A stretch of DNA of 10,031 nt from a virus (lineage: Duplodnaviria > Heunggongvirae > Uroviricota > Caudoviricetes). The translations under genes were made by a program, and so were the position numbers. Location of the stretch: positions 1 through 10,031 of the IMG/VR virus record IMGVR_UViG_2645727991_000007. One strand, 5' to 3'. Numbering within the stretch: the first letter of the stretch is position 1; each line of letters opens with the position of its first letter. Under the pieces are notes generated by a model that had not been told where the DNA came from, did no database searches, and saw only the letters and a list, made by a program, of their open reading frames with translations. Shown piece by piece: positions 1 to 10,031 of the stretch.

Positions 1-934
1 AATAAACGCCCTCACTCTCCCTGTTTTTATACCCGCCGTACACGGTGTCGTACTGGGTAGCGTATGTATTTTTCCAGTAATACGTCGTGTCACCACAAAT
101 CCACGGCACATCTGCAGCACTGCCACCATGACACTGCGCGTTAAACACAGTGAGGTCAGCACGAAACTGCTTCAGCATGGCTGTAAACAGCGCAGGTTGC
201 TGTGCGTAGGTGGCGGCGCTCATGTCAAACTCTCCCTGCATCCAGCACACCGCCAGCAACACATTTTTCGGGTTCTTCTGTAATGCAGCTTTAGTGCGCG
301 CAATCAGGTCCTGATATAACGGTTTACCCACACCCCAGCGTGCCGAATCCTGGCTGGCCCCCGCGTCCGCACTGAATGTCCCCTCCGCGCCCTGGGTGAA
401 TGCCGAACCACCACGACAGCATGGTACCAGCAGGATCCCCGCGTTATTCGGGATATACGGAAGCAGTTTTTTGGCAATATGTAAGCCCTGGCCGACACAG
501 CCGTACTGCCCTTTGCTCAGGTCTGCCTTCGGATGATTCAGCGTACTCATATCCTGCACATCATGCAGGCAGTGGTCGGCCGGAATAATATCGTTATATC
601 TGCAGGCAGCCCCACCCGGCGTCACTGTACTGCGGCGCGCCAGCTGTTTAATGCGCGGATCCGGAGCATCGTATGAATCCGGCAGCGGAAGCCCTTCACC
701 GTAAGCCATGGCATTGGATTGCCCGGCCAGTACGATGACGTAGTACCAATCCGGCTCAGTTGCACCACTGACCACCACATCACCTTCTGCTGTAATCGCC
801 TGCATCAGAGTATAAGGGGTTATGGCCACCGGACTACCAAACGGCTGCCAGCCCTCTTTCAGTTTGTGTGTCAGCTTTTCCGCAAGGTCTGACGGCGACG
901 CCGCCCTGACAACATCATAATGTTTAAATGTCAT
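1..934 (-). CDS. 5' portion (about 311 codons) of a prophage NanS-p-like sialate O-acetylesterase (SASA/SGNH esterase); 3' end lies beyond the window start
   Basis: Minus-strand frame is open from ATG 934..932 (SD GGAGGA, rev-comp of tcctcc at 939-944) to the window edge; absent from the ORF track because the stop is outside the window. Translation starts MTFKHYDVVRAASPSDLAEKL and contains VLAGQSNAMAYGEG, the GQSN serine block typical of sialate O-acetylesterases. Location after the phage tRNAs matches nanS-p placement in Stx-type prophages. Family call is from memory. Confidence 0.55.
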   Translation of the reverse strand, partial: MTFKHYDVVRAASPSDLAEKLTHKLKEGWQPFGSPVAITPYTLMQAITAEGDVVVSGATEPDWYYVIVLAGQSNAMAYGEGLPLPDSYDAPDPRIKQLARRSTVTPGGAACRYNDIIPADHCLHDVQDMSTLNHPKADLSKGQYGCVGQGLHIAKKLLPYIPNNAGILLVPCCRGGSAFTQGAEGTFSADAGASQDSARWGVGKPLYQDLIARTKAALQKNPKNVLLAVCWMQGEFDMSAATYAQQPALFTAMLKQFRADLTVFNAQCHGGSAADVPWICGDTTYYWKNTYATQYDTVYGGYKNRESEGVY

Positions 935-1118
935 TATTCCTCCCGGCCGGGATAGTGTATTAAATCAGATATGGAGTGGGCTGTAGTCCGGAAGCCTGAA
1001 TGACACACGGGGACTACAGCCCAAGAAATGAAAAAAGGCCACGCAGTTGCGCAGCCTGATAAACCCTGGTTAAAATCCACACGATAACAACACAACAATA
1101 TCAGTATCTCATGCTATT

Positions 1119-1143
1119 GCCCGAACCCATTCGGGCATTTTTT
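1119..1143 (+). terminator. Intrinsic-terminator-like hairpin, plus-strand orientation
   Basis: gcccgaa(1119-1125) / loop ccca / ttcgggc(1130-1136), perfect 7-bp stem, followed by a-tttttt (1138-1143). Confidence 0.35.
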
Positions 1144-1148
1144 ACCCA

Positions 1149-1176
1149 TAAAAAATGCCCCTCCGGAGAGGGGCAT
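1149..1176 (-). terminator. Rho-independent terminator ending the TerB-like/small-ORF unit
   Basis: Perfect 9-bp stem atgcccctc(1155-1163) / loop cgga / gaggggcat(1168-1176); on the minus strand it is followed by TTTTTTAT (plus A-run 1150-1155). Confidence 0.5.
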
Positions 1177-1355
1177 GTTTGCATACACATTCTTTTTCTT
1201 GCATGGTGCCGGGTGCCTCCCGGTGAATTCAGCCGGTGTCACTGAACCCGCGTCGGCTTGCCTATAACATAATAAATGCTACCTACACCAGTCGCCCCTC
1301 CGCACAGGGGGATTCACCATGCAGAAGTGTTTTTAATAAACAGCAAATAAAAAAA

Positions 1356-1523
1356 TCAAGCATTATGCAGGCTGTTTCTTTTTATCACCGGCCACAGCAA
1401 TACCACAATGCCGCAGACCAGCACCCCATCCGCCAGCACCGACATGATTCTGCTGGTGAAATCCACCATCACCACCAGAAACAGCAGGAGTGCAGCCACA
1501 GCCAGGCGCAGTTTTACCGTCAC
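1356..1523 (-). CDS. Small hydrophobic protein (55 aa, two predicted TM segments), GTG start overlapping the TerB-like stop
   Basis: Below the ORF-track length cutoff. Minus-strand GTG 1523..1521 overlaps the upstream TGA (GTGA); possible SD GGAG 9 nt upstream. Translation VTVKLRLAVAALLLFLVVMVDFTSRIMSVLADGVLVCGIVVLLWPVIKRNSLHNA, stop TGA 1358..1356. No homolog recalled. Confidence 0.3.
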   Translation of the reverse strand: MTVKLRLAVAALLLFLVVMVDFTSRIMSVLADGVLVCGIVVLLWPVIKRNSLHNA

Positions 1524-1949
1524 AGGTAATTCTCCAGACGAAGACCCAGAACACCGGCAATCTCTTCCAGCACCTTGCGCTCTTCCGGCTCAATTTCGCC
1601 GTCTGCCTCCGCAATGGCCACCGCCACATCCAGCACATCTTCCGCTTCACGCGTATCGTGTTTCACATCCTCAATCTCGCGTAACGCGGCACGACGACCA
1701 ATTTTAAAATTGGTATCCAGCTGACCGATAATGGTTGCGCTAATCGCATTAATTTCCGAGGTAAACGCAGACAACGCAGGCTGATTACGTAAGACCTGTT
1801 CGATCTTCGCTTTCTCGGATGCCTCGCATTCACCATCTGCATAGGCCACCAGGTATGCAGCGTTAATCACCGCCTGTGCCAGATCGCGTTTCTCAAACTT
1901 TTTAATTTCCGCTGCCGCTCTGCGGGTTTTCTTTTTGAAGATTCCAAAC
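1520..1949 (-). CDS. TerB-like (tellurite-resistance TerB domain family) protein, 142 aa
   Basis: ORF-track frame 1520..2023, trimmed to ATG 1949..1947 which has SD AAGGAA 7 nt upstream (the track start at 2023 is GTG with no SD). Translation MFGIFKKKTRRAAAEIKKFEKRDLAQAVINAAYLVAYADGECEASEKAKIEQVLRN... EADGEIEPEERKVLEEIAGVLGL, with the paired ADGE helix repeats typical of TerB. Family call from memory. Confidence 0.6.
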
Positions 1950-2083
1950 ATCGTGACGTTCCTTTGGGTGGGTGAGCCAACGCCCGGGAGCGATCTGCCC
2001 ACAGAGAAAGTCACACTGACCACTCCGTAAGCTCACCCCCGAAAGGCTCTGTGGTTGATATGCGCCGGGCGTGGCGCAGATAC

Positions 2084-2107
2084 AAAAAAGGCCCGCCGAA
2101 GCGAGCC
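2084..2107 (-). terminator. Rho-independent terminator downstream of the tRNA pair
   Basis: On the minus strand GGCUCGC-UUCG-GCGGGCC (7-bp stem with one G-U, UUCG tetraloop; plus 2090-2107) followed by UUUUUU (plus A-run 2084-2089). Confidence 0.5.
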
Positions 2108-2120
2108 TGGAAAATAAGTG

Positions 2121-2197
2121 TGGCGCGTTGTAGTGGAGTCTAACCACTGACCGATTGCTTAGAAGGCAATTGCTCTGTCCGACTGAGCTAACAACGC
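2121..2197 (-). tRNA. tRNA-Arg (anticodon UCU), 77 nt with encoded CCA; prophage argN/argO-type
   Basis: Rev-comp folds by hand as a cloverleaf: acceptor GCGTTGT/ACAACGC, D-arm GCTC-AGTCGGACA-GAGC, anticodon arm ATTGC-CTTCTAA-GCAAT (TCT anticodon), variable CGGTC, T-arm AGTGG-TTAGACT-CCACT, discriminator G, CCA. The T-loop has A where the conserved C56 is expected. Confidence 0.65.
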
Positions 2198-2278
2198 ATG
2201 ATGCTGATAATGGACCGCCACCGGGGACTCCGAATCTCGCACAGGGTGACGTTCTTTCCTGATGAGCTAGTGGCGGTT

Positions 2279-2354
2279 GGTGGCCCTTGCTGGATTTGAA
2301 CCAGCGACCTGGCGATTATGAGTCACTCGCTCTCACCACTGAGCTAAAGGGCCG
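2279..2354 (-). tRNA. tRNA-Ile2 (anticodon CAU; ileX/ileZ-like, likely scored as tRNA-Met by generic tools), 76 nt with encoded CCA
   Basis: Rev-comp GGCCCTTTAGCTCAGTGGTGAGAGCGAGTGACTCATAATCGCCAGGTCGCTGGTTCAAATCCAGCAAGGGCCACCA; cloverleaf with anticodon loop CTCATAA. Differs at only a few positions from E. coli ileX as I recall it; Stx-type prophages carry ileZ-argN-argO at this position. Confidence 0.75.
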
Positions 2355-2362
2355 ATAACATA

Positions 2363-2391
2363 ATGATAACGTTACAGAATAAATTCAGCAA
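2363..2391 (-). promoter_or_regulatory. Sigma70-like promoter positioned to start the tRNA transcript
   Basis: On the minus strand TTGCTG (plus 2391-2386), 17-bp spacer, TATCAT (plus 2368-2363); the -10 ends 8 nt before the tRNA 5' end at 2354. Lies in the last codons of the methylase ORF. Confidence 0.4.
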
Positions 2392-2393
2392 TA

Positions 2394-3092
2394 TCACTCT
2401 CTCTTTCTGATTAAATTCTGTACATCCCTTGCGGTCTGCTCAAAACGTCCGGTCTCCAGCTCAACGCCAATTGCACGACGCCCCAGTGCATTCGCTGCTT
2501 TGACTGTCGAACCGGACCCCATGAAGAAATCTGCAACCAGGTCTCCCGGACGACTGCTGGCGGTAATCATTTGCCGCAACATATCTGCCGGTTTTTCACA
2601 GGGATGTTTGCCCGGATAATACTGCACAGGCTTGTGCGTCCAGACATCCGTATAAGGAACGGCTGCCGATACGGAAAAATAACGCCGCAGTGATTTGTAC
2701 TCTTCCAGCAGGCTGGCATACTGCCGGTTCAGCTCACTGTATGTGCTGACCAGTTGGTGATGTGGCTTTTCCAGTTCACCCCGCTGATGTTTCTCTTCTG
2801 CCACCCGGGCAAACAGCACCTGAAGTTTTCTGTAATCATCCTCGTTCGGTAACTGCCACTGGCTGGCACTGAACCAGTGCGACACCATGTTTTTCTTTCC
2901 TGTGGCATCCACAATCTGTTTTGCCGTTATCCCCAGAGCAGCACGCGCATCACGAAAGTAAGAAATCAGCGGGGCCATCACATGCTGTTTCAGTGCACTG
3001 CCCTTCGCCGCATAACCACAAATAAAAAAGCCTTTACTGCGGAAGGCGTCTGTAACAACCGAACTGATAGTCTGCCAGACCCGCCATAACAA
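2394..3092 (-). CDS. DNA methyltransferase (N6/N4 amino-MTase family), C-terminal and target-recognition portion only; probably 5'-truncated or inactive
   Basis: ORF-track frame. C-terminal block HPCEKPADMLRQMITASSRPGDLVADFFMGSGSTVKAANALGRRAIGVELE matches the HP(T/C)xKP ... D(P)FxGSG(T/S)T ... GxE signature of this family. No DPPY/NPPY/SPPF motif IV anywhere in the ORF or in other frames upstream to 3354. The track start at 3092 is TTG; first in-frame ATG is 2978. Confidence 0.6.
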   Translation of the reverse strand: MLWRVWQTISSVVTDAFRSKGFFICGYAAKGSALKQHVMAPLISYFRDARAALGITAKQIVDATGKKNMVSHWFSASQWQLPNEDDYRKLQVLFARVAEEKHQRGELEKPHHQLVSTYSELNRQYASLLEEYKSLRRYFSVSAAVPYTDVWTHKPVQYYPGKHPCEKPADMLRQMITASSRPGDLVADFFMGSGSTVKAANALGRRAIGVELETGRFEQTARDVQNLIRKRE

Positions 3093-3231
3093 GCTGGGTC
3101 AGTATTAACTGGCAGCGTTCGCGTGAAAGATAAGTGTTCTGCGCAATTTCCTCGACGGTCGCCGGTTCGGTGACGCTTAATTCATTAAACACCACTCTGG
3201 CGGTTTCGGTCATATCCTGCTGTTTTAGCAT
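3034..3231 (-). CDS. Small helix-turn-helix protein (about 65 aa), PapI/FaeA-like winged-helix candidate
   Basis: ATG 3231..3229 within track frame 3034..3354. Translation MLKQQDMTETARVVFNELSVTEPATVEEIAQNTYLSRERCQLILTQLVMAGLADYQFGCYRRLPQ, with the TVEEIAQ...LSRERCQLILTQLV segment HTH-like. Start uncertain: ATG 3213 and the GTG at 3354 are alternatives; the SD is weak. Confidence 0.35.
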   Translation of the reverse strand: MLKQQDMTETARVVFNELSVTEPATVEEIAQNTYLSRERCQLILTQLVMAGLADYQFGCYRRLPQ

Positions 3232-3354
3232 GCCTTTTTCCCTTTTCCGGTTAACGTGACACACCAATAACTCTTGTCGAAAAAGCCAGCAAGCTGAAAG
3301 AACGGTATTAATAACCACCAGCGAATTTATTGCGCTGCTGTATATTACGGACAC

Positions 3355-3375
3355 AAAAAAACCACCTTCCGGTGG
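3355..3375 (-). terminator. tR'-like intrinsic terminator ending the short late leader
   Basis: Minus strand CCACC-GGAA-GGUGG (plus 3362-3375, 5-bp GC-rich stem, GNRA loop) followed by UUUUUUU (plus 3355-3360). Confidence 0.5.
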
Positions 3376-3472
3376 CTTCCTTGTGCGAAAAAACTTGCAT
3401 TTCGCCTCGCGATACAGCTTTGCGGAGCTTACAGGAATTCAAGCTGTTTCTGCGTAAAAAAGCAAGCTTTTT
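3376..3472 (-). promoter_or_regulatory. Putative Q-dependent late promoter (PR'-like) and leader immediately downstream of Q
   Basis: Minus strand after the Q stop: AAAAAGCTTGCTTTTTTACGCAGAAACAGCTTGAATTCCTGTAAGC... Candidate -35 TTGCTT, 17-bp spacer, -10-like TTGAAT; an AT palindrome AAAAAAGC-TT-GCTTTTTT; a leader hairpin GCGAAA-N9-TTTCGC; then the terminator. Element positions are tentative. Confidence 0.35.
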
Positions 3473-4015
3473 TTATCGAAATGAATCGTGCATAGGTACA
3501 TAAAGCATGTGTTCAGCCACGGCTAACCAACCTGCAATACGTTTCTCACATGTGCTGAAACACCATTCCGGGTGAGTACGATTTAAACATTCTGCCATTT
3601 TTCTCTTACTCATTCCCCGTCCTTCGTACCTTTGCCGGAGAATATTGATTAGCCCGGGATATTCCCCAAGCACCTCACTGATAACGCGATCAATAATCAA
3701 CGCCTCTGTGTCTGTACAATGTGACAACCAGCTCTTCTGCTTCCCTCTGGTCATATCCCGAAAAAATGCCTCAAGTTCCGGTTTTTCCAGCCCGGATTTC
3801 TTCATGCTGCGTAAAACCTCATTAACTGCTGTTTTCGTCAGCCTTTTCGAAACCAGTAACCGGTTAAACATATTTCCGGATTTACCCCCACCGATATACG
3901 ACCACCGCCCCCACATCCGTAATTTCCCCTGGATCCAGACTGCTTCCAGCGTGTTCAGGCGTAAATGTTCGCCGCTTTTGCCTGTAATTTCCGGATATAT
4001 CATATTTACGCTCAC
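3473..4015 (-). CDS. Antitermination protein Q (Q21/Q82-type, Phage_antitermQ-like)
   Basis: ORF-track frame; GTG start 4015 overlaps the rusA stop (GTGA), alternative ATG at 4003. Contains LRMWGRWSY (compare the ERWGAWA motif of Q82-type proteins, from memory) and C-terminal cysteines EWCFSTC. Sits between rusA and the late promoter/terminator, the canonical Q position. Confidence 0.55.
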   Translation of the reverse strand: MSVNMIYPEITGKSGEHLRLNTLEAVWIQGKLRMWGRWSYIGGGKSGNMFNRLLVSKRLTKTAVNEVLRSMKKSGLEKPELEAFFRDMTRGKQKSWLSHCTDTEALIIDRVISEVLGEYPGLINILRQRYEGRGMSKRKMAECLNRTHPEWCFSTCEKRIAGWLAVAEHMLYVPMHDSFR

Positions 4016-4371
4016 TCACTCTCAATTTTGTAAATCTTCACACCCAGCCGTCCACCAGATACTGGCTGACCACGTACAATATTGATTTCATCAAACTGCT
4101 CGTCATCAATGAGCACTCCCGCATGCGTCAGCGCATCCAGCGGTGCTTTCAGAATATTGTCCAGGTCACGACGACGCTTATCCGGTGGCTCTGCAATAAT
4201 TTTTATTGCCAGCCGTCCGGACAGGCTTAATTTCAGTCGCTGCTGGCGAACAATAAGCGCCACTGCCCGGCGATAACGCTCCCCGGCTTTTGATACAAAA
4301 TATGTGCTGCCACGGCGTCGCCAGTAAGTGTTCACCGTCGGCGGGTAAGGTAAAACCAAATCTATGAGCAT
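4012..4371 (-). CDS. rusA: Crossover junction endodeoxyribonuclease RusA (Holliday junction resolvase)
   Basis: 119-aa ORF, ATG 4371 with SD AGAGGTGA. Translation MLIDLVLPYPPTVNTYWRRRGSTYFVS...PDKRRRDLDNILKAPLDALTHAGVLIDDEQF closely parallels E. coli RusA (PDRRRRDLDN...DALTKAG), from memory. Confidence 0.85.
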   Translation of the reverse strand: MLIDLVLPYPPTVNTYWRRRGSTYFVSKAGERYRRAVALIVRQQRLKLSLSGRLAIKIIAEPPDKRRRDLDNILKAPLDALTHAGVLIDDEQFDEINIVRGQPVSGGRLGVKIYKIESE

Positions 4372-4383
4372 CAGTCACCTCTT

Positions 4384-5433
4384 TTACCCGAGCACGCCGG
4401 TTGCAAAGGCGTGATCAAGAAAACGAAAAATTAACTCAATCTGAGAGCCGTACTTTTTCTCAAACTCCAGCGGGTCTGCATGAAGTTCGTTGTGGTGCTC
4501 CCGGCACAACGGTAACGTGAAAATATCGTGGGCCTTTGTCCCCATTCCCCCCTGACCATGACCAATCAGGTGATGCGGATCGTCAGCAGGCTTACCACAA
4601 CACGCACACGGCTGTGTCTTTACCCAGCGCGTGTATTTCTCGTTAACCCAGCGGCGACGTTTAGGTCGTTTCATGAAAGATTCCGGAGACTCAGGATCAA
4701 CGGCAATGCTGACCACCGTCTTTTCCTGTGGTGGGTTCTGTTGCTGGTGGGCGTGAGGCAGCGGCGCAAGATTTTTTGTGCGCTGCTTCAGTATGCTGGT
4801 GGCGGTCTGCTCTCCCGGTACGATGTCGCTTTCACGGTACACTGAGCGGATTTTTTCCGCACGCAACCCCAGCGAACGACGTAATACCGCTTCCGGTAGC
4901 GCGTCCGCCACCTGATTGCGGACCGCCCACCAGGATAATTCAGCCAGAGATAATTCACGCTCCTGCGTACCGCATATTGCGTGACCGATGACGTCAATCA
5001 TCCATGCTGACAGGTTTTGATGAGCAAGTTGCTCGAGTGATTCGGATGTCTGGTCACGCAGCTGGTTGTCGCAGTGCCAGCACAACACCATTGCGCCGGT
5101 ACCATAACGGTGAATAACGGTTTCACTGTGATGATAATCGCCGTGTGGCCACTGGCAGGATTTAACATGGCGCAGTAACCAGTCAGACAATGCGCCAGCG
5201 CCACCAGCAGCACGAATCACCCGTGCGTTACTGAAAAACGGCAGCAATGTTTTGTCTTCCACTAGCGGCTGGCGAACGGCAGGGACGATGCCGGACGGCA
5301 GATTACGCATGCTTTTCGGTTCCGGCTCCACCAGTACCCGGGTATTGTGGAATACCGGCATGGATTCACGGCCCGGCTTAACGATCACCAGCCCGAGTTC
5401 CGGTACCAGAACAGGTCGAAGTAATACCCGCAC
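4384..5433 (-). CDS. DUF968-domain prophage protein (YdfU-like), 349 aa
   Basis: ORF-track frame; GTG start 5433 with SD GGAGG 4 nt upstream. MRVLLRPVLVPELG... N-terminus and C-terminal CACCGKPADDPHHLIGHGQGG...LPLCREHHNELH (HNH/zinc-like) match my recollection of Qin-prophage YdfU. Contains two plus-strand Chi octamers (4743-4750, 4795-4802). Confidence 0.75.
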   Translation of the reverse strand: MRVLLRPVLVPELGLVIVKPGRESMPVFHNTRVLVEPEPKSMRNLPSGIVPAVRQPLVEDKTLLPFFSNARVIRAAGGAGALSDWLLRHVKSCQWPHGDYHHSETVIHRYGTGAMVLCWHCDNQLRDQTSESLEQLAHQNLSAWMIDVIGHAICGTQERELSLAELSWWAVRNQVADALPEAVLRRSLGLRAEKIRSVYRESDIVPGEQTATSILKQRTKNLAPLPHAHQQQNPPQEKTVVSIAVDPESPESFMKRPKRRRWVNEKYTRWVKTQPCACCGKPADDPHHLIGHGQGGMGTKAHDIFTLPLCREHHNELHADPLEFEKKYGSQIELIFRFLDHAFATGVLG

Positions 5434-5434
5434 G

Positions 5435-5707
5435 TTACCTCCAGATGCGTTGCTGGAATGTGCGGGACGGACGCGGCGGGCGTTCGGAATAAAGGAGCCT
5501 GACGTAGATTATCCAGTGACGGTAGTCGAGGCTAAGGGCTTTCTTAAACTCATACCCACGTCTGCGGTAGTTATGAATCAGCCATTCGGCCTGTTCTTCA
5601 GTGCAGGGATCGTGCTGATACCAGTCATATTTGAATGTGTGAGAACACCGCCCTTGCCTGCTGGCAGGGGCGATATCAGAATTGTGATGTTTGGTATTGT
5701 GCGCCAT
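5435..5707 (-). CDS. Hypothetical protein (about 90 aa)
   Basis: Track frame 5435..5761 begins at a TTG; first ATG is 5707 (MAHNTKHHNSDIAPASRQGRCSHTFKYDWYQHDPCTEEQAEWLIHNYRRRGYEFKK...). TAA stop 5437..5435 sits 1 nt before the DUF968 GTG. No family recognised. Confidence 0.4.
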   Translation of the reverse strand: MAHNTKHHNSDIAPASRQGRCSHTFKYDWYQHDPCTEEQAEWLIHNYRRRGYEFKKALSLDYRHWIIYVRLLYSERPPRPSRTFQQRIWR

Positions 5708-5776
5708 CGGTTTTCTCTGCTGGCGCAGCAGGTGCCAGTTGTTCAAGCTGGCGTGCGGCAATATTGTCTCTGATTT

Positions 5777-5807
5777 CTGTTGTCGTCAACAGGCAACGTG
5801 CTATCAT
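5777..5807 (+). promoter_or_regulatory. Toxin-antitoxin promoter with palindromic operator
   Basis: -35 TTGTCG (5780-5785), 16-bp spacer, -10 TATCAT (5802-5807); perfect palindrome CTGTTG-tcgt-CAACAG (5777-5792) overlaps the -35; SD GTGAGG at 5831-5836. Confidence 0.45.
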
Positions 5808-5842
5808 CGAATGGTGTTCTATCCTACTCCGTGAGGTTTACC

Positions 5843-6100
5843 ATGCGTACAACCCAACAATTCAGCATTACATTAACTAACGAAATGGCTGACATGGTGC
5901 GCGCCCGTGTGGCTTCCGGTGCCTATGCTTCAGAAAGCGAGGTCATTCGTGAAGGGCTTCGCGCACTGAATGAGCGCGATAAAGCAATCGAAGCGTGGTT
6001 AACGCATTCAGCCGCCCCCTCTCTTGATTCTATCCGCGAAAACCCAAACAACGGACGCTCCATTTCACAGGTTCGCGCCGCGATTCGATCCGGGAAGTAA
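5843..6100 (+). CDS. Type II antitoxin, ParD-like (ribbon-helix-helix/CopG family)
   Basis: ATG 5843 within track frame 5780..6100. Translation MRTTQQFSITLTNEMADMVRARVASGAYASESEVIREGLRALNERDKAIEAWL... ; stop is 5 nt before the toxin start. Confidence 0.75.
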   Translation: MRTTQQFSITLTNEMADMVRARVASGAYASESEVIREGLRALNERDKAIEAWLTHSAAPSLDSIRENPNNGRSISQVRAAIRSGK

Positions 6101-6105
6101 TCTGC

Positions 6106-6405
6106 ATGACATATGAAGTCATCATTACTCCTGAGGCCGAAGAACAAATAATCAACCTGCACAGATATATAACGGAGAAAGCAGGGAACGTCATTGCTGA
6201 CAATTTTGCCAATGCGCTTCTTGATTATCTTGATGGGTTTTCTACATTCCCGCATCGGGGCAATAAACGCGATGATATTCGCCAGGGGATGCGGGTAACT
6301 CATTTCCGCCACAGAACGATTATTGCTTTTGCCGTTGATGGCAGAAAAGTCTTTATTGTCGGTATCTATCATGGTGGGCAAAGTTATGAAACCGATTTCT
6401 TATAA
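6106..6405 (+). CDS. Type II toxin, ParE/RelE superfamily
   Basis: 99-aa ORF MTYEVIITPEAEEQIINLHRYITEKAGNVIADNFANALLDYLDGFSTFPHRGNKRDDIRQGMRVTHFRHRTIIAFAVDGRKVFIVGIYHGGQSYETDFL; size, operon position after the RHH antitoxin and the C-terminal FxV...IxHG pattern fit ParE. Confidence 0.8.
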   Translation: MTYEVIITPEAEEQIINLHRYITEKAGNVIADNFANALLDYLDGFSTFPHRGNKRDDIRQGMRVTHFRHRTIIAFAVDGRKVFIVGIYHGGQSYETDFL

Positions 6406-6488
6406 ACTTTTACCCACATCATTCCGGTGTTAGAATTAACCGTCCGCCCCCCTCTCTTACTGGCGGATTCGTAGGCTATATAAATCAA

Positions 6489-6523
6489 AGATCCCGGCTC
6501 ATGTTTGTGTCGGGATCTTTTTT
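6489..6523. terminator. Bidirectional intrinsic terminator between the convergent TA operon and the minus-strand small-peptide ORF
   Basis: 8-bp stem agatcccg(6489-6496) / 14-nt loop / cgggatct(6511-6518), followed by TTTTTT (6518-6523) on plus and by CTTTGATTTATAT on minus. Confidence 0.5.
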
Positions 6524-6530
6524 CGGCGAT

Positions 6531-6614
6531 TTATCCCCAGCGGCAAATCGAATACACCACCAGCGCCACCGCCATCGCAATTCCTACCGTTGTGAATGCT
6601 TCAGGCCTGGTCAT
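6531..6614 (-). CDS. 27-aa single-TM peptide, translationally coupled to the upstream ORF
   Basis: Below the track cutoff. ATG 6614..6612 overlaps the TGA of the 114-aa ORF (ATGA). Translation [30 protein letters not shown] stop 6533..6531, terminator directly downstream. Confidence 0.25.
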
Positions 6615-6955
6615 CGTAAAACATCCTCCACGCTTGTCAGTCCGTTTCGCTCCAGGTAGTCCATCGCCTTATCCGGCAGTTTGCAGTCCGGCTTCGCTTT
6701 CCTCAGTTGCCAGGCTAACTGCTTTACCTGCATAGTTAACTCGTCGACCAGACGCTGATACCCCACTGGTTTGTATTCATGCAATTTACCGGCTGGCTCT
6801 GCTGCCAGCGATGCCAGTGCGATTTCCAGAACAGCAATATCCATCTTATATGTGCGGATGATGTCATGGTCGATTGTGCCCGGTATACACAGTCTCTGTG
6901 CTTCAATAGTCTCCTCTGCGTGAGCTATTAACTGCTCTCTGGTAATAGTGGTCAT
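6611..6955 (-). CDS. Hypothetical prophage protein (114 aa)
   Basis: ORF-track frame; ATG 6955..6953 overlaps the upstream TGA (ATGA). [31 protein letters not shown]... ; no family recognised. Confidence 0.55.
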
Positions 6956-7467
6956 GCCGCGTTTCCTTCTTTCTTATTAACAATTACACCGTCATATATT
7001 TCATTAAGGTGCCCTCTCAACTCCATGCGCCTTAATGCAGACAACATGTAATCGCATTCAACCTGCTTATTTCCAGTAAATGGCTTATCGTCAGGATTAC
7101 CCCAACAGCAATTACCCTTGGGCCACCCATGTACTTTCCGTACTCTTCCGTTAACAACGTGAAGTAATCCCCAGCCAGGTGGTAAATCCTCAATTGAAAT
7201 AATTCCCGGCTCACTAATAAAGAATCGCCAGTCGCCCATTCCAAGAGACGGATTTTTACGAAAACACTTTTTTCTATCTGCCAACAAGTCAGCACGAGAA
7301 CATTTCGCCTCTATCAGGCATGATGCTGAATTTCTGAATCCCATAGCATCTGGCTGTTCTCCGGTACTGGTTACAGCTATAAAGCGGTCATGAAAACAAA
7401 CCTTGAACCCGTTGCGCTTAAGGAACTTGTACGCAATCTGACAGAGTTCGCGGTGTGTTAACGCCAT
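6952..7467 (-). CDS. Hypothetical protein with PD-(D/E)xK-like nuclease motif (171 aa)
   Basis: Track frame 6952..7497 trimmed to ATG 7467..7465 (SD AAGGAG 7 nt upstream), 1 nt after the Ea22-like stop. [21 protein letters not shown] gives D ... E-x-K with spacing typical of the PD-(D/E)xK fold; the fold assignment is inference only. Confidence 0.55.
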
Positions 7468-7468
7468 A

Positions 7469-8416
7469 TCACTCTCCTTTGATGCGAATGCCAGCAAGCC
7501 AGTTTCTTATGCCGATATATTCAGCGTTCCTGAAACCGCTTTTTACATATATAAATGGCAAGCGAAGATTGTGACCATTGACTGCCAGGTAGTCTTTACA
7601 ACCCTGTTCGGTGAAACAGCAGGTAACGAATTCATCAATATCTTTCACAGCAACGCGCCGCCATTTTTCTGGTGGCTCTCGAAAGTTTTCATGAAGTAGC
7701 TCGAGACGACGACTATGGCGTTTATTGGCTTCATTGCCATCTTCGTCAACCCAGACAATCCGGTCATGGTCATAATCAGCATCAACAACGATTTCGCGCT
7801 TTTGATACACACAAAACATGGGATCTGACGTTATTCGATTGTCCTGTGTTCGAATATTTTCACCGATGATGCCAAACGAATCTGGTGCAGATTTTGTCTG
7901 CATCTCTTCGATACGTTCAGCCATCGCAGCACACTCTTCAAAGTTGCTTAATGCTTTTCGCTCCCATTCGGCGCATTGTTTTTCCAGTTCTGCTATGCGC
8001 TTACTTCCATCCGCGATTACTCCCTCGTAATATTCACGCTGCTCGTTGAGTTTTGATTTTGCTGCTTCAAGCTCAACGCGCAGCTTCCCTACCGTTAGCG
8101 CAATATCCTCGTTCTCCTGGTCGCGGCGTTTGATGTATTGCTGGTTTCTTTCCCGTTCATCCAGAAGCGCCAGCGCAACATTTGGATTAAAGGCAGCAAT
8201 AAATTCAGCGTTTGCGTAAGCCTGAGCATCTGTTTCAACCAGGCAGTTAACATGACATTCTGCAATCACGCCACCGGGTTCTCCTTTCCATTTTTGACAA
8301 ACAAAAACTCCTGTTATATTCCCATGCTGATTGCCCGATGTATGCCCTACGATGTAGCATCCTTTAGTTGCTTTCTCTGCTGCTTCACGCAGCGCCTGAT
8401 AGTCAATCTCGCTCAT
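7469..8416 (-). CDS. Ead/Ea22-like family protein (315 aa) with central coiled-coil
   Basis: ORF-track frame; ATG 8416..8414 overlaps the upstream TGA. N-terminus MSEIDYQALREAAEKATKG, the LLDERERNQQYIKRRDQENEDIALTVGKLRVELEAAKSKLNEQREYYEG coiled-coil and the C-terminal AGIRIKGE resemble lambda Ea22-type proteins as I recall them. Confidence 0.6.
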   Translation of the reverse strand: MSEIDYQALREAAEKATKGCYIVGHTSGNQHGNITGVFVCQKWKGEPGGVIAECHVNCLVETDAQAYANAEFIAAFNPNVALALLDERERNQQYIKRRDQENEDIALTVGKLRVELEAAKSKLNEQREYYEGVIADGSKRIAELEKQCAEWERKALSNFEECAAMAERIEEMQTKSAPDSFGIIGENIRTQDNRITSDPMFCVYQKREIVVDADYDHDRIVWVDEDGNEANKRHSRRLELLHENFREPPEKWRRVAVKDIDEFVTCCFTEQGCKDYLAVNGHNLRLPFIYVKSGFRNAEYIGIRNWLAGIRIKGE

Positions 8417-8589
8417 TCATCGCCCCACTCATCACAATATGCTTCGACCGCAGTTTTCCCTGCTTCATAATCATCACGCCATGCTTCAGCATCAGCAGCA
8501 CTGCCACCACGTAACTCTGCATAGTCCATTAACAGTTCATGCCATTCTTCAAAACTGACGCTGTATTTAGTTGAACCAAAATCAGCCAT
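8413..8589 (-). CDS. Small highly acidic protein (58 aa)
   Basis: Below the track cutoff. ATG 8589..8587 with strong SD AGGAGGA. Translation MADFGSTKYSVSFEEWHELLMDYAELRGGSAADAEAWRDDYEAGKTAVEAYCDEWGDE; 16 D/E versus 4 K/R. Confidence 0.4.
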   Translation of the reverse strand: MADFGSTKYSVSFEEWHELLMDYAELRGGSAADAEAWRDDYEAGKTAVEAYCDEWGDE

Positions 8590-8590
8590 T

Positions 8591-8764
8591 TTATTCCTCC
8601 TCTTCGTCTTTTATTTCGTGATATGAGTAATTGCAGTAGTTAAAGAAAATATCTTTTGCTTCGTCATGTATTTCATCAGGCGTCGCATCATCATCCACTT
8701 CGAATTCATCCTCGAAATCTCCACCGGCTATTCCCGTTTCAATAATTATTTTAAACTTTCGCAT
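8591..8764 (-). CDS. Small highly acidic protein (57 aa)
   Basis: Below the track cutoff. ATG 8764..8762 preceded in frame by TAA. Translation MRKFKIIIETGIAGGDFEDEFEVDDDATPDEIHDEAKDIFFNYCNYSYHEIKDEEEE; 20 D/E versus 5 K/R. TAA stop is 1 nt before the next ATG. Confidence 0.4.
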   Translation of the reverse strand: MRKFKIIIETGIAGGDFEDEFEVDDDATPDEIHDEAKDIFFNYCNYSYHEIKDEEEE

Positions 8765-8857
8765 TTAACTACCGCCCTTTCGGGCGGCCTCCTGATGTTC
8801 TTAGGGTGCAGAAATCCCTCCGGTTAAGGATTAAATTTTTAACAGAGCTAAATTTAA

Positions 8858-9214
8858 TTATTCAGTTCTGGATTTTGTCGCCCTGCGTATCCGCGCTTTC
8901 GCGTTACGCTCAATCTGAATTAGCTTTTCTATATTTTTTCGCCTTTCCCGCTCCTCCTGGCGCAAGAGCCTTACATCATCTGCCAGTCTGGTTTCTCTTT
9001 TCGCCACAGAGAGCATCCAGTCAAACGGCTCCACAACTGCACCGCAGATTTTACAGCGGACCTGACGCTCTTTTTCGTCAACCCGAACAGAGGCGTGATG
9101 ACAATATGCTCTTTCCGATGCCTCATAAAGAAAATTAACCTGATTACGTGGGTCATCCTCTTTTACCGGAAATAAAACGATATTGCTTAACTCATCTTCT
9201 GGTTTTATTTCCAT
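8858..9214 (-). CDS. Hypothetical protein (118 aa) with CHH...CxxC zinc-ribbon-like motif and basic C-terminal tail
   Basis: Track frame 8858..9271 trimmed to ATG 9214..9212 (SD AAGGAG 6 nt upstream). MEIKPEDELSNIVLFPVKEDDP...AYCHHASVRVDEKERQVRCKICGAVVEPFDW...RLLRQEERERRKNIEKLIQIERNAKARIRRATKSRTE. Confidence 0.5.
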   Translation of the reverse strand: MEIKPEDELSNIVLFPVKEDDPRNQVNFLYEASERAYCHHASVRVDEKERQVRCKICGAVVEPFDWMLSVAKRETRLADDVRLLRQEERERRKNIEKLIQIERNAKARIRRATKSRTE

Positions 9215-9271
9215 GCTCTTCTCCTTTGATGTGAATGCCAGCGGTAATTGAAGCCTGATAGCTAATTTCAT

Positions 9272-9667
9272 TCACAGTATCGCCTCCTGAAAATTACCCT
9301 GATAGAAAGCCAGTACACGCAGCATAACTTCACTCTTCCGGCACTCGCCACAGATTATGTTCTGTTGTCTGTCGTAGCGGCGTATTTCTCCGTCTGGTAA
9401 CTTTCGAATCAATGTCTGGTCGGTTGTTTTCTCCGCTGCCTTACGCCATACGCGATACACCTGTTCTGATGTAAAAACACCGTATTTACCGGGCATGTAT
9501 AAATCGCCACAAGCCAGTACATCCACAAGGCAACGTCTGACTGAATGCCAGCCTGCTCCCGTCGCTCTCTCCAGTTGTGATATCGTCATGCGTTCATTTT
9601 TGCGTACCAGCCCGATAATTCGGGCCTTCAGTTCTTCACGCTGTTCGTGTGTAAAAGGTTTCGCCAT
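9272..9667 (-). CDS. Hypothetical protein (131 aa), possible winged-helix DNA-binding protein
   Basis: Track frame 9272..9682 trimmed to ATG 9667..9665 (SD GGAGG). MAKPFTHEQREELKARIIGLVRKNERMTISQLERATGAGWHSVRRCLVDVLACGDLYMPGKYGVF... ; the TISQLERATGAGWHSVRRCL segment is HTH-like (inference). Confidence 0.5.
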   Translation of the reverse strand: MAKPFTHEQREELKARIIGLVRKNERMTISQLERATGAGWHSVRRCLVDVLACGDLYMPGKYGVFTSEQVYRVWRKAAEKTTDQTLIRKLPDGEIRRYDRQQNIICGECRKSEVMLRVLAFYQGNFQEAIL

Positions 9668-9682
9668 AAGCGCCTCCGGCAA

Positions 9683-10031
9683 TCACTTTTCCGATACAAC
9701 ACGGCGGGAAGAATCAGTAATCTGTCGAACAATATCCCGGTGCTTGTTCAGCTCCCGCAGCGCGGCGCAGACTCGCTCCCACTTCTGAACATCACTTTTC
9801 GCCCTGCGCAGCGCCAGGTTTGCCCTGCGAAGGGACGGAAAAATCAGCTCATCTGCTTGCGTTTCGGTAAACGATGGCAACGGCTGCACAATGTCCGCCA
9901 CAGTTTCTGTTTTAATTTCTTCCTGTGTTGCGGCTTCCCGGACTGGTAACGCAGCACCTGCTGGCTGAGGAAAGGCCTTACCATCATTTTCCGTTACCGG
10001 CGCGGCTTTCGGATCTGCTGGTAAATTACCC
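9683..10031 (-). CDS. 3' portion of a gene continuing upstream beyond the window end (function unknown, possibly replication-region protein)
   Basis: The track gives 9683..9901 from an internal GTG, but the same frame stays open to the window edge (...GNLPADPKAAPVTENDGKAFPQPAGAALPVREAATQEEIKTETVADIVQPLPSFTETQADELIFPSLRRANLALRRAKSDVQKWERVCAALRELNKHRDIVRQITDSSRRVVSEK). Stop at 9685..9683. Confidence 0.45.
   Translation of the reverse strand, partial: GNLPADPKAAPVTENDGKAFPQPAGAALPVREAATQEEIKTETVADIVQPLPSFTETQADELIFPSLRRANLALRRAKSDVQKWERVCAALRELNKHRDIVRQITDSSRRVVSEK

Follow-up and report, generated by a model that had tools for sequence, protein, structure and literature searches.

A conserved pair of very small acidic genes in a Stx-type lambdoid prophage as candidates for early-acting inhibitors

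Two very short open reading frames (ORFs), here called orfA and orfB, lie in tandem beside an Ea22-like gene in a Stx-type lambdoid prophage of Escherichia coli, and the locus raises the question of whether they are genuine genes and what their extremely acidic products might do. The stretch of DNA analysed (the window) comprises 10,031 nt, positions 1 to 10,031 of IMG/VR record IMGVR_UViG_2645727991_000007; all coordinates refer to the whole window, and orfA, orfB and the Ea22-like gene are all on the minus strand (Table 1). An initial annotation had proposed both products as DNA-mimic or anti-defence candidates. The patterns of substitution among related loci confirmed orfA and orfB as genuine coding genes under strong purifying selection, and the two proteins are considered below as candidate protein-binding inhibitors.

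Both mini-ORFs were recovered by ORF calling and translation. OrfA contains 20 Asp + Glu and 5 Lys + Arg residues (net charge -15, isoelectric point 4.07, 35% Asp + Glu) and OrfB contains 16 and 4 (net charge -12, isoelectric point 4.05, 28% Asp + Glu); these residue counts agree with the charges first reported for the two proteins of fewer than 60 residues. Judged from composition, both have the high density of surface carboxylates that characterizes the DNA-mimic class. The acidic run DFEDEFEVDDD and the C-terminal EEEE pointed out in the initial annotation are present in the translations, and its description of tight packing was borne out: the orfA stop and the orfB start are 1 nt apart (TAA-A-ATG) and the orfB stop overlaps the start of the Ea22-like gene as ATGA. 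The orfA gene of the window is a CAA-to-TAA variant; the commoner 60-aa allele ends in ...EEEEQNG and overlaps orfB by 8 nt, so that relative to most Escherichia coli DUF7167 alleles the window protein lacks the last three residues, QNG.

Table 1. Positions of the two mini-genes, the adjoining gene and the start signals in the window
Feature	Position	Strand	Description	Basis
orfA	8591-8764	(-)	57 aa; product MRKFKIIIETGIAGGDFEDEFEVDDDATPDEIHDEAKDIFFNYCNYSYHEIKDEEEE	ORF and translation
orfB	8413-8589	(-)	58 aa; product MADFGSTKYSVSFEEWHELLMDYAELRGGSAADAEAWRDDYEAGKTAVEAYCDEWGDE	ORF and translation
orfB Shine-Dalgarno sequence AGGAGG	8596-8601	(-)	within the 3' end of orfA; spacing to the orfB ATG 6 nt	sequence read
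GC hairpin CCGCCC-GAAA-GGGCGG	8772-8787	(-)	directly 3' of AGGAGG 8788-8793	sequence
Conserved leader of ~100 nt	8765-8865	(-)	upstream of orfA; travels with the cassette	alignment of ten loci
Ead/Ea22-like gene	7469-8416	(-)	315 aa; N-terminal domain PF13935, E 3e-45	

The 352-nt cassette formed by the two genes was compared across ten related loci and three Enterobacter loci with orfB, and ratios of non-synonymous to synonymous substitution rates (dN/dS) were calculated between intact copies by the Nei-Gojobori method. Values of 0.02-0.10 were obtained for orfA (the window and locus L006, for example, differ at 14 synonymous and three non-synonymous positions) and of 0.09-0.13 for orfB. Between orfB and its Enterobacter orthologue, 27 synonymous changes have accumulated in about 34 synonymous sites, which are thus saturated, together with 16 non-synonymous changes (dN 0.12). 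The locus is therefore conserved as coding sequence, a point on which the anti-defence proposal had been made to depend. Both genes are called by PGAP, the NCBI annotation pipeline, the cassette is present in 1,909 of 5,426 complete E. coli genomes, and each exact protein sequence occurs on at least 1,000 contigs.

Spurious or non-functional ORFs, whether chance frames or remnants with no selected function, might be suspected from the shortness of both genes, from the many truncated or frameshifted copies in the databases and from stop codons in cryptic prophages. Stop codons in one or both genes were encountered solely in visibly degraded prophages with transposases and other pseudogenes (L004, L005, L012, L013 and L014), and the sequences indicate that the cassette decays after a prophage turns cryptic. 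The strong purifying selection effectively refutes the suspicion, which is also at odds with relatives as distant as ~30-45% identity from many genera and from mobile elements of several kinds, with confident fold predictions for both proteins and with the canonical ribosome-binding site of orfB; we consider it extremely improbable.

A convincing start context had been ascribed to each ORF. This holds for orfB, the Shine-Dalgarno sequence of which lies within the 3' end of orfA and suggests that the two genes are translationally coupled, but not as it stands for orfA, for which the sole strong Shine-Dalgarno sequence (AGGAGG, 8788-8793) is 23 nt upstream of the ATG with a GC hairpin between. 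The hairpin is the sole element in the centroid RNA fold of the leader; across loci its stem is mostly conserved and its loop is variable (GAAA or GGCA). If this GC-rich stem with its GNRA loop were closed, the spacing from Shine-Dalgarno sequence to ATG would fall from 23 to 7 nt, and the hairpin may thus provide a structure-assisted ribosome-binding site for translation of orfA.

In ten aligned loci with unrelated upstream genes, homology starts ~100 nt before the orfA ATG. The upstream neighbour varies by locus (the 137-aa ORF, an S-adenosylmethionine-dependent methyltransferase or DUF4406) and so does the downstream neighbour (an Ea22-like gene, a 171-aa ORF or a 119-aa ORF). From these alignments the pair is a mobile accessory cassette with its own conserved leader and variable genes on both sides, and the Ea22-like gene is context rather than a fixed partner. 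An Rfam scan of the leader returned no match, no convincing promoter or terminator was predicted for the cassette and no sigma-70-like promoter was found on the minus (coding) strand of the leader; given the last result, expression is likeliest to depend on read-through from the early operon. Two further observations concern the cassette as a unit of exchange. The last ~75 nt of orfB [window 8413-8489 (-); L003 3001-3074; matches H66, H82 and H83] recur alone before unrelated genes, namely DUF551, an adenine methyltransferase in the P1-like phage JL22 and Ea22-like genes, in what looks like a mosaic recombination junction. The whole cassette is also found, at ~94-95% nucleotide identity to E. 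coli prophages, in 'Actinobacillus phage vB_Apl-pPE4' (PP818812.1), the host assignment of which looks doubtful.

No named family had been recognized for either protein. For OrfA this did not stand, as it belongs to Pfam DUF7167 (PF23768), with a score of 55.3 bits against a gathering cut-off of 24.4 bits (E 7e-15) and a full-length match of residues 2-53 on profile positions 1-60 of 60; for OrfB it stands in that no Pfam family applies, although the protein falls in PHROG 519. Homologues of OrfA had already been annotated as PF23768, and OrfA also matches phrog_1997 (E 7.5e-31). It shares with DUF7167/PHROG 1997 the same length of ~57 aa and the same pattern, MRKF...IET...FEVxDDAT.EEI..EA...F.N.CNY..HE. 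The AlphaFold2 model calculated from the family alignment is a beta-beta-alpha-beta unit with strands 2-9, 16-23 and 45-51 and a helix at 29-40 [predicted local distance difference test (pLDDT) 80]. Acidity is a property of the family (median net charge -13, range -16 to -6, in 39 DUF7167 proteins), as is a set of conserved non-acidic residues (R2, F4, I8, T10, F21, V23, A27, T28, I32, A36, N42, C44 and Y46). Partial matches to ribosomal protein uL23 (E 0.09) and to the AnkX insertion domain were weak and were treated as noise.

Relatives of OrfA were found by profile search in 135 clusters at E <= 0.01, in Escherichia, Klebsiella, Citrobacter, Serratia, Yersinia and Pseudomonas, and tblastn extended them to Klebsiella Guernseyvirinae and Enterococcus Herelleviridae phages; the distant virulent-phage copies score just under the Pfam cut-off (22.9 and 19 bits versus 24.4 bits). 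DUF7167 is rare on plasmids (15 records) and essentially phage-specific. In every phage inspected the gene was situated in an early or DNA-metabolism region: it overlaps the start of a DUF2800/PD-(D/E)XK nuclease gene in Klebsiella Guernseyvirinae and an SNF2 helicase gene in a podophage contig, lies between Dam and a DNA polymerase III theta-like gene in P22-like left operons, is near the integrase in Yersinia and stands amid small ORFs downstream of a ParA-like gene in Pseudomonas.

This phage-specific distribution amid early replication and recombination genes makes a target in DNA metabolism, the host's or the phage's, the more likely one for OrfA. An anti-nuclease role and an accessory role in the phage's own DNA metabolism appear about equally open. 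The pair, and mainly OrfA, might be accessory factors of the element's own replication or recombination, i.e. small subunits or modulators working with phage nucleases, helicases or the replisome, with no part in anti-immunity. The overlaps with nuclease and helicase genes and the position beside Dam and the theta-like gene fit such a role, as does the placement of orfA and orfB after the replication genes in the window, and probable DUF7167 relatives reaching as far as Enterococcus phages suggest a universal target. A constant exonuclease partner was considered for DUF7167 and rejected, however: no two lineages share a neighbour, and what is called an 'exonuclease' in Enterococcus is a DUF3850/ASCH protein. 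Moreover, the virulent-phage homologues that extend the range fall below the gathering cut-off, and in E. coli prophages orfA is found amid dispensable accessory genes and is readily lost, so that we judge a replication-accessory role to be rather unlikely.

OrfB gave no family match in Pfam and NCBIfam scans; it matched phrog_519 with an E value of 1.2e-20 and 75.3 bits, residues 1-58 aligning with positions 76-137 of 143. A hidden Markov model (HMM) search of 1.84 billion representative proteins returned 74 clusters at E <= 1e-3, nearly all of them stand-alone proteins of 48-75 aa, with the motif sFeEW..L...A...GgsaaD.dAWRdDYdaGkTPeeAw.dEWG. The AlphaFold2 model from the family alignment is a three-helix bundle (pLDDT 87; helices 13-27, 34-42 and 47-55), and the residues conserved in the family are F13, W16, L20, W37, Y41, G44, Y51 and W55. 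Net charge had a median of -10 and a range of -15 to +1 in 47 relatives. An assignment to DUF5419, taken from the annotation of Morganella phage Mecenats66, was not supported (a single member of the 47 matches, with E 0.02, and Pfam gave nothing for the Morganella protein), and weak partial matches to helicase-associated (HA) repeats were treated as noise. Acidity combined with conserved, specific non-acidic residues points to small folded domains with a defined interface rather than disordered acidic tails for both proteins.

Members of phrog_519 in Kuttervirus have been scored as possible anti-CRISPRs by the PaCRISPR classifier (PMC9409062). The relatives of OrfB likewise occur in Kuttervirus and other Ackermannviridae, the group in which phrog_519 was found; OrfB corresponds to less than half of that profile, at the positions given above, and the anti-CRISPR label is a machine-learning score and not an experiment. 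An Aca-type helix-turn-helix (HTH) regulator was looked for beside the cassette, and no HTH domain was detected by Pfam scan in the 137-aa zinc-ribbon-like ORF or in the Ead/Ea22-like gene.

Among phages, relatives of OrfB are present in 192 records, mainly Ackermannviridae (CBA120, Vi01 and Klebsiella Menlow), with others in T5-like phages, in the KP34-like phage phiKDA1 and in Mecenats66. They are also present on 554 plasmids, 516 of which are conjugative, of the IncI2, IncU, IncT and other types. About 415 of the plasmid copies are 80-90% identical to OrfB, and those inspected are on ~60-kb mcr-1-type IncI2 plasmids. There the homologue (86% identity; L030 1298-1474 and L031 9001-9177) belongs to an operon of a CaiF/GrlA-type regulator, DUF1187, orfB, SPFH and NfeD between repA and the type IV secretion genes. 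The IncU and IncT copies are more distant and stand within long one-directional arrays of small unknown genes. In Enterobacter, orfB (78% identity) follows an Ead/Ea22 gene with no DUF7167 gene present, and adjoins xis/int or is in a nin-type region. An obligate orfA-orfB pair was rejected on these grounds and because the DUF7167 gene of Klebsiella is followed by an unrelated Cys-rich ORF; outside E. coli, orfA and orfB travel independently.

In the T5-like phage EP_H11 a NADAR protein, of the DNA ADP-ribose glycohydrolase family, carries an OrfB-like domain as a C-terminal fusion, whereas in the related phage IME392 the NADAR and OrfB-like units are separate adjacent genes (loci L002 3488-4144 and L027 985-1644 for this comparison). 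Of 600 phage records that match NADAR, 4 extend over 80% or more of the fused EP_H11 protein. Being rare and possibly artefactual, the fusion was not taken as functional evidence but as weak evidence of adjacency.

The plasmid and prophage settings of orfB bear on a further explanation, in which the proteins are life-cycle regulators: modulators of lysogeny or induction resembling the proteins of the lambda exo-xis/ea22 region, modulators of transfer expression on IncI2 plasmids, or binders of a nucleoid protein such as H-NS. The repeated adjacency of orfB to Ead/Ea22-like genes, in either order, is compatible with this, and in IncI2 plasmids a regulator gene heads its operon, which immediately precedes the transfer genes. 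The Ea22 adjacency is inconstant, however, neither protein has a DNA-binding motif, and orfB is common in strictly virulent phages, which have no lysogeny or conjugation to regulate. A regulatory function of this kind is thus one that we regard as improbable, if not greatly so.

Neither protein matched a catalytic or HTH family in Pfam, NCBIfam or PADLOC; PADLOC and NCBIfam scans of the two proteins returned no match of any kind. Such extreme acidity with no catalytic or HTH signature makes nucleic-acid binding or catalysis unlikely, and we infer that neither protein is an enzyme or a DNA binder and that both act by binding another protein. The explanation that we tentatively prefer, at somewhat short of even probability, is that each is a small stoichiometric binder or inhibitor acting early. 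Each would be one compact domain of 50-60 residues, ~30% of them acidic. Its most likely mode of action is stoichiometric binding to a protein of the host or of a competitor, at a basic or nucleic-acid-binding surface, so as to block that protein soon after entry of the element's DNA or after prophage induction.

OrfB is the stronger candidate of the two for an establishment or anti-defence factor, as members of its family, up to 86% identical, are found in temperate phages, in three or more groups of virulent phages and on hundreds of conjugative plasmids. A spread across these element types suggests a function useful to any incoming DNA, such as inhibition of a host defence, of a host nuclease or of a nucleoid-silencing protein. 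It also lends circumstantial support to the anti-defence idea, since some known anti-restriction genes are spread in this way; the family-wide conservation of acidity and the location of the genes in accessory regions among early genes are likewise circumstantial support. The more specific proposal that the OrfB family aids establishment as broad-spectrum inhibitors acting on a defence or DNA-surveillance protein of the host, with OrfA a second, phage-specific inhibitor from the same cassette, is put forward with considerable doubt.

Several points weigh against assigning the proteins to inhibition. Many small acidic phage proteins have unrelated roles, so that acidity by itself counts for little as evidence. 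Searches for similarity in structure or sequence gave no significant match to a characterized inhibitor, and in the literature library searched the family names, accessions and IncI2 context yielded nothing on function and no experimental datum. On the IncI2 plasmids orfB is situated between repA and the type IV secretion genes, behind the CaiF/GrlA-type regulator, and apparently not in the oriT-proximal leading region usual for plasmid anti-defence genes. In pABC149-MCR-1, mobC and the relaxase gene are at 13.8-18.4 kb and the orfB homologue, at 59.8 kb, is past repA and heads the type IV secretion cluster. Finally, the invariant polar residues of OrfA (E9, T10, D25, D26, T28, N42, C44 and E50) fit a specific interface and are silent on defence.

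In the closest fully annotated relative of the window the gene order is cro, YdaT, O-like HTH, DnaC-like ATPase, DUF1627, DUF977, 137-aa ORF, DUF7167 (orfA), orfB and Ea22-like, followed by an opposite-strand ParDE pair, DUF968, RusA, DUF1133, a methyltransferase, tRNAs and lysis genes. The cassette is on the rightward (PR) side, in an accessory stretch between the replication genes and the nin/Q-type genes, whereas ea22 of lambda belongs to the leftward PL operon. In the window itself the ParD/ParE type II toxin-antitoxin pair [5843-6100 and 6106-6405 (+)] is opposite to the early operon, between the Ea22-like block and DUF968/RusA. Between the DNA methyltransferase and TerB-family genes are two tRNA genes [2124-2197 and 2281-2353 (-)], annotated in the closest relative as tRNA-Arg and tRNA-Ile. 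The longest methyltransferase ORF [2394-3092 (-)] has a TTG start and encodes 232 aa, compared with 352 aa in the relative (L001 10380-11438); the alignment between the window and that relative is broken into two, the lengths differing by ~550 nt, and truncation or rearrangement of the methyltransferase gene in the window is possible. Two Rfam matches exceeded the gathering score, AgvB, an anti-GcvB small RNA [1082-1143 (+), 96.5 bits], and STnc100 [1144-1348 (-), 153.6 bits], a prophage small-RNA pairing known from lambdoid prophages of the enterohaemorrhagic E. coli type.

The genes themselves were already annotated, as DUF7167 and as 'hypothetical/prophage protein', and are extremely common. 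What the sequence comparisons add is that the OrfB family, which has no Pfam entry, spans phages and conjugative plasmids, including mcr-1-type IncI2, and that both families, while under purifying selection, have stayed extremely acidic. Roughly one in three complete E. coli genomes contains the cassette, Stx-type prophages being among its carriers, and a close OrfB homologue is found on hundreds of IncI2 plasmids, a type by which colistin resistance through mcr-1 is spread. Should OrfB prove to be an establishment or anti-defence factor, it would define a new family of very small inhibitors common to phages and plasmids, and would offer a handle on what limits the spread of such elements; if the two are dispensable accessory genes, the finding is ordinary. 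Both are reasonable and cheap candidates for inhibitor screens.

The DNA-mimic proposal was confronted with known systems. HMM searches of all PDB sequences were negative for both proteins, which showed no sequence or profile similarity to any solved structure. Foldseek searches against viral predicted structures returned uncharacterized small proteins only, all with E > 0.01; Ocr, ArdA and other known DNA mimics were absent from the top matches, and the profile and Foldseek comparisons thus gave no significant match to known inhibitors. Nor was homology to a characterized non-inhibitor family found in Pfam, PHROG, NCBIfam or PADLOC. A Pfam scan at E <= 1 gave no ArdA match for either ORF, both single-domain proteins, and neither belongs to the Ocr (T7 gp0.3) family. 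Small phage inhibitor proteins counted among the nearest known systems are T7 Gp2, which inhibits host RNA polymerase, T4 Dmd and AcrIE2. Homology to T7 Gp2-like RNA polymerase inhibitors was likewise not found (profile comparison 0.2% probability), so that the likeness to Gp2 is one of shape only, without family membership. Both predicted folds are generic in the models, a beta-beta-alpha-beta unit and a three-helix bundle, the latter resembling generic helical lids and UBA-like bundles.

Classical mimics of the Ocr/ArdA type have an acidic surface that imitates the phosphate backbone, and proteins of this kind would titrate type I/III restriction enzymes, BREX or another DNA-binding defence protein such as RecBCD. 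Ocr (~117 aa) has an elongated, all-alpha fold and ArdA (~166 aa) is a three-domain protein; both are elongated dimers two to three times larger than OrfA and OrfB. The folds are generic, and no similarity in sequence, profile or fold to Ocr or ArdA was detected; mimicry of this type gained nothing from the analysis, and we consider it distinctly unlikely. The part of the initial annotation that retains circumstantial support is the broader anti-defence idea. In favour of a mimic stands the charge carried by fewer than 60 residues, with acidity kept family-wide, and some known mimics, T7 gp5.9 and phi29 p56, are similarly small and act as dimers. Like Ocr and ArdA, OrfA and OrfB are very acidic, early and encoded by mobile elements, and OrfB resembles ArdA further in being distributed over both phages and conjugative plasmids.

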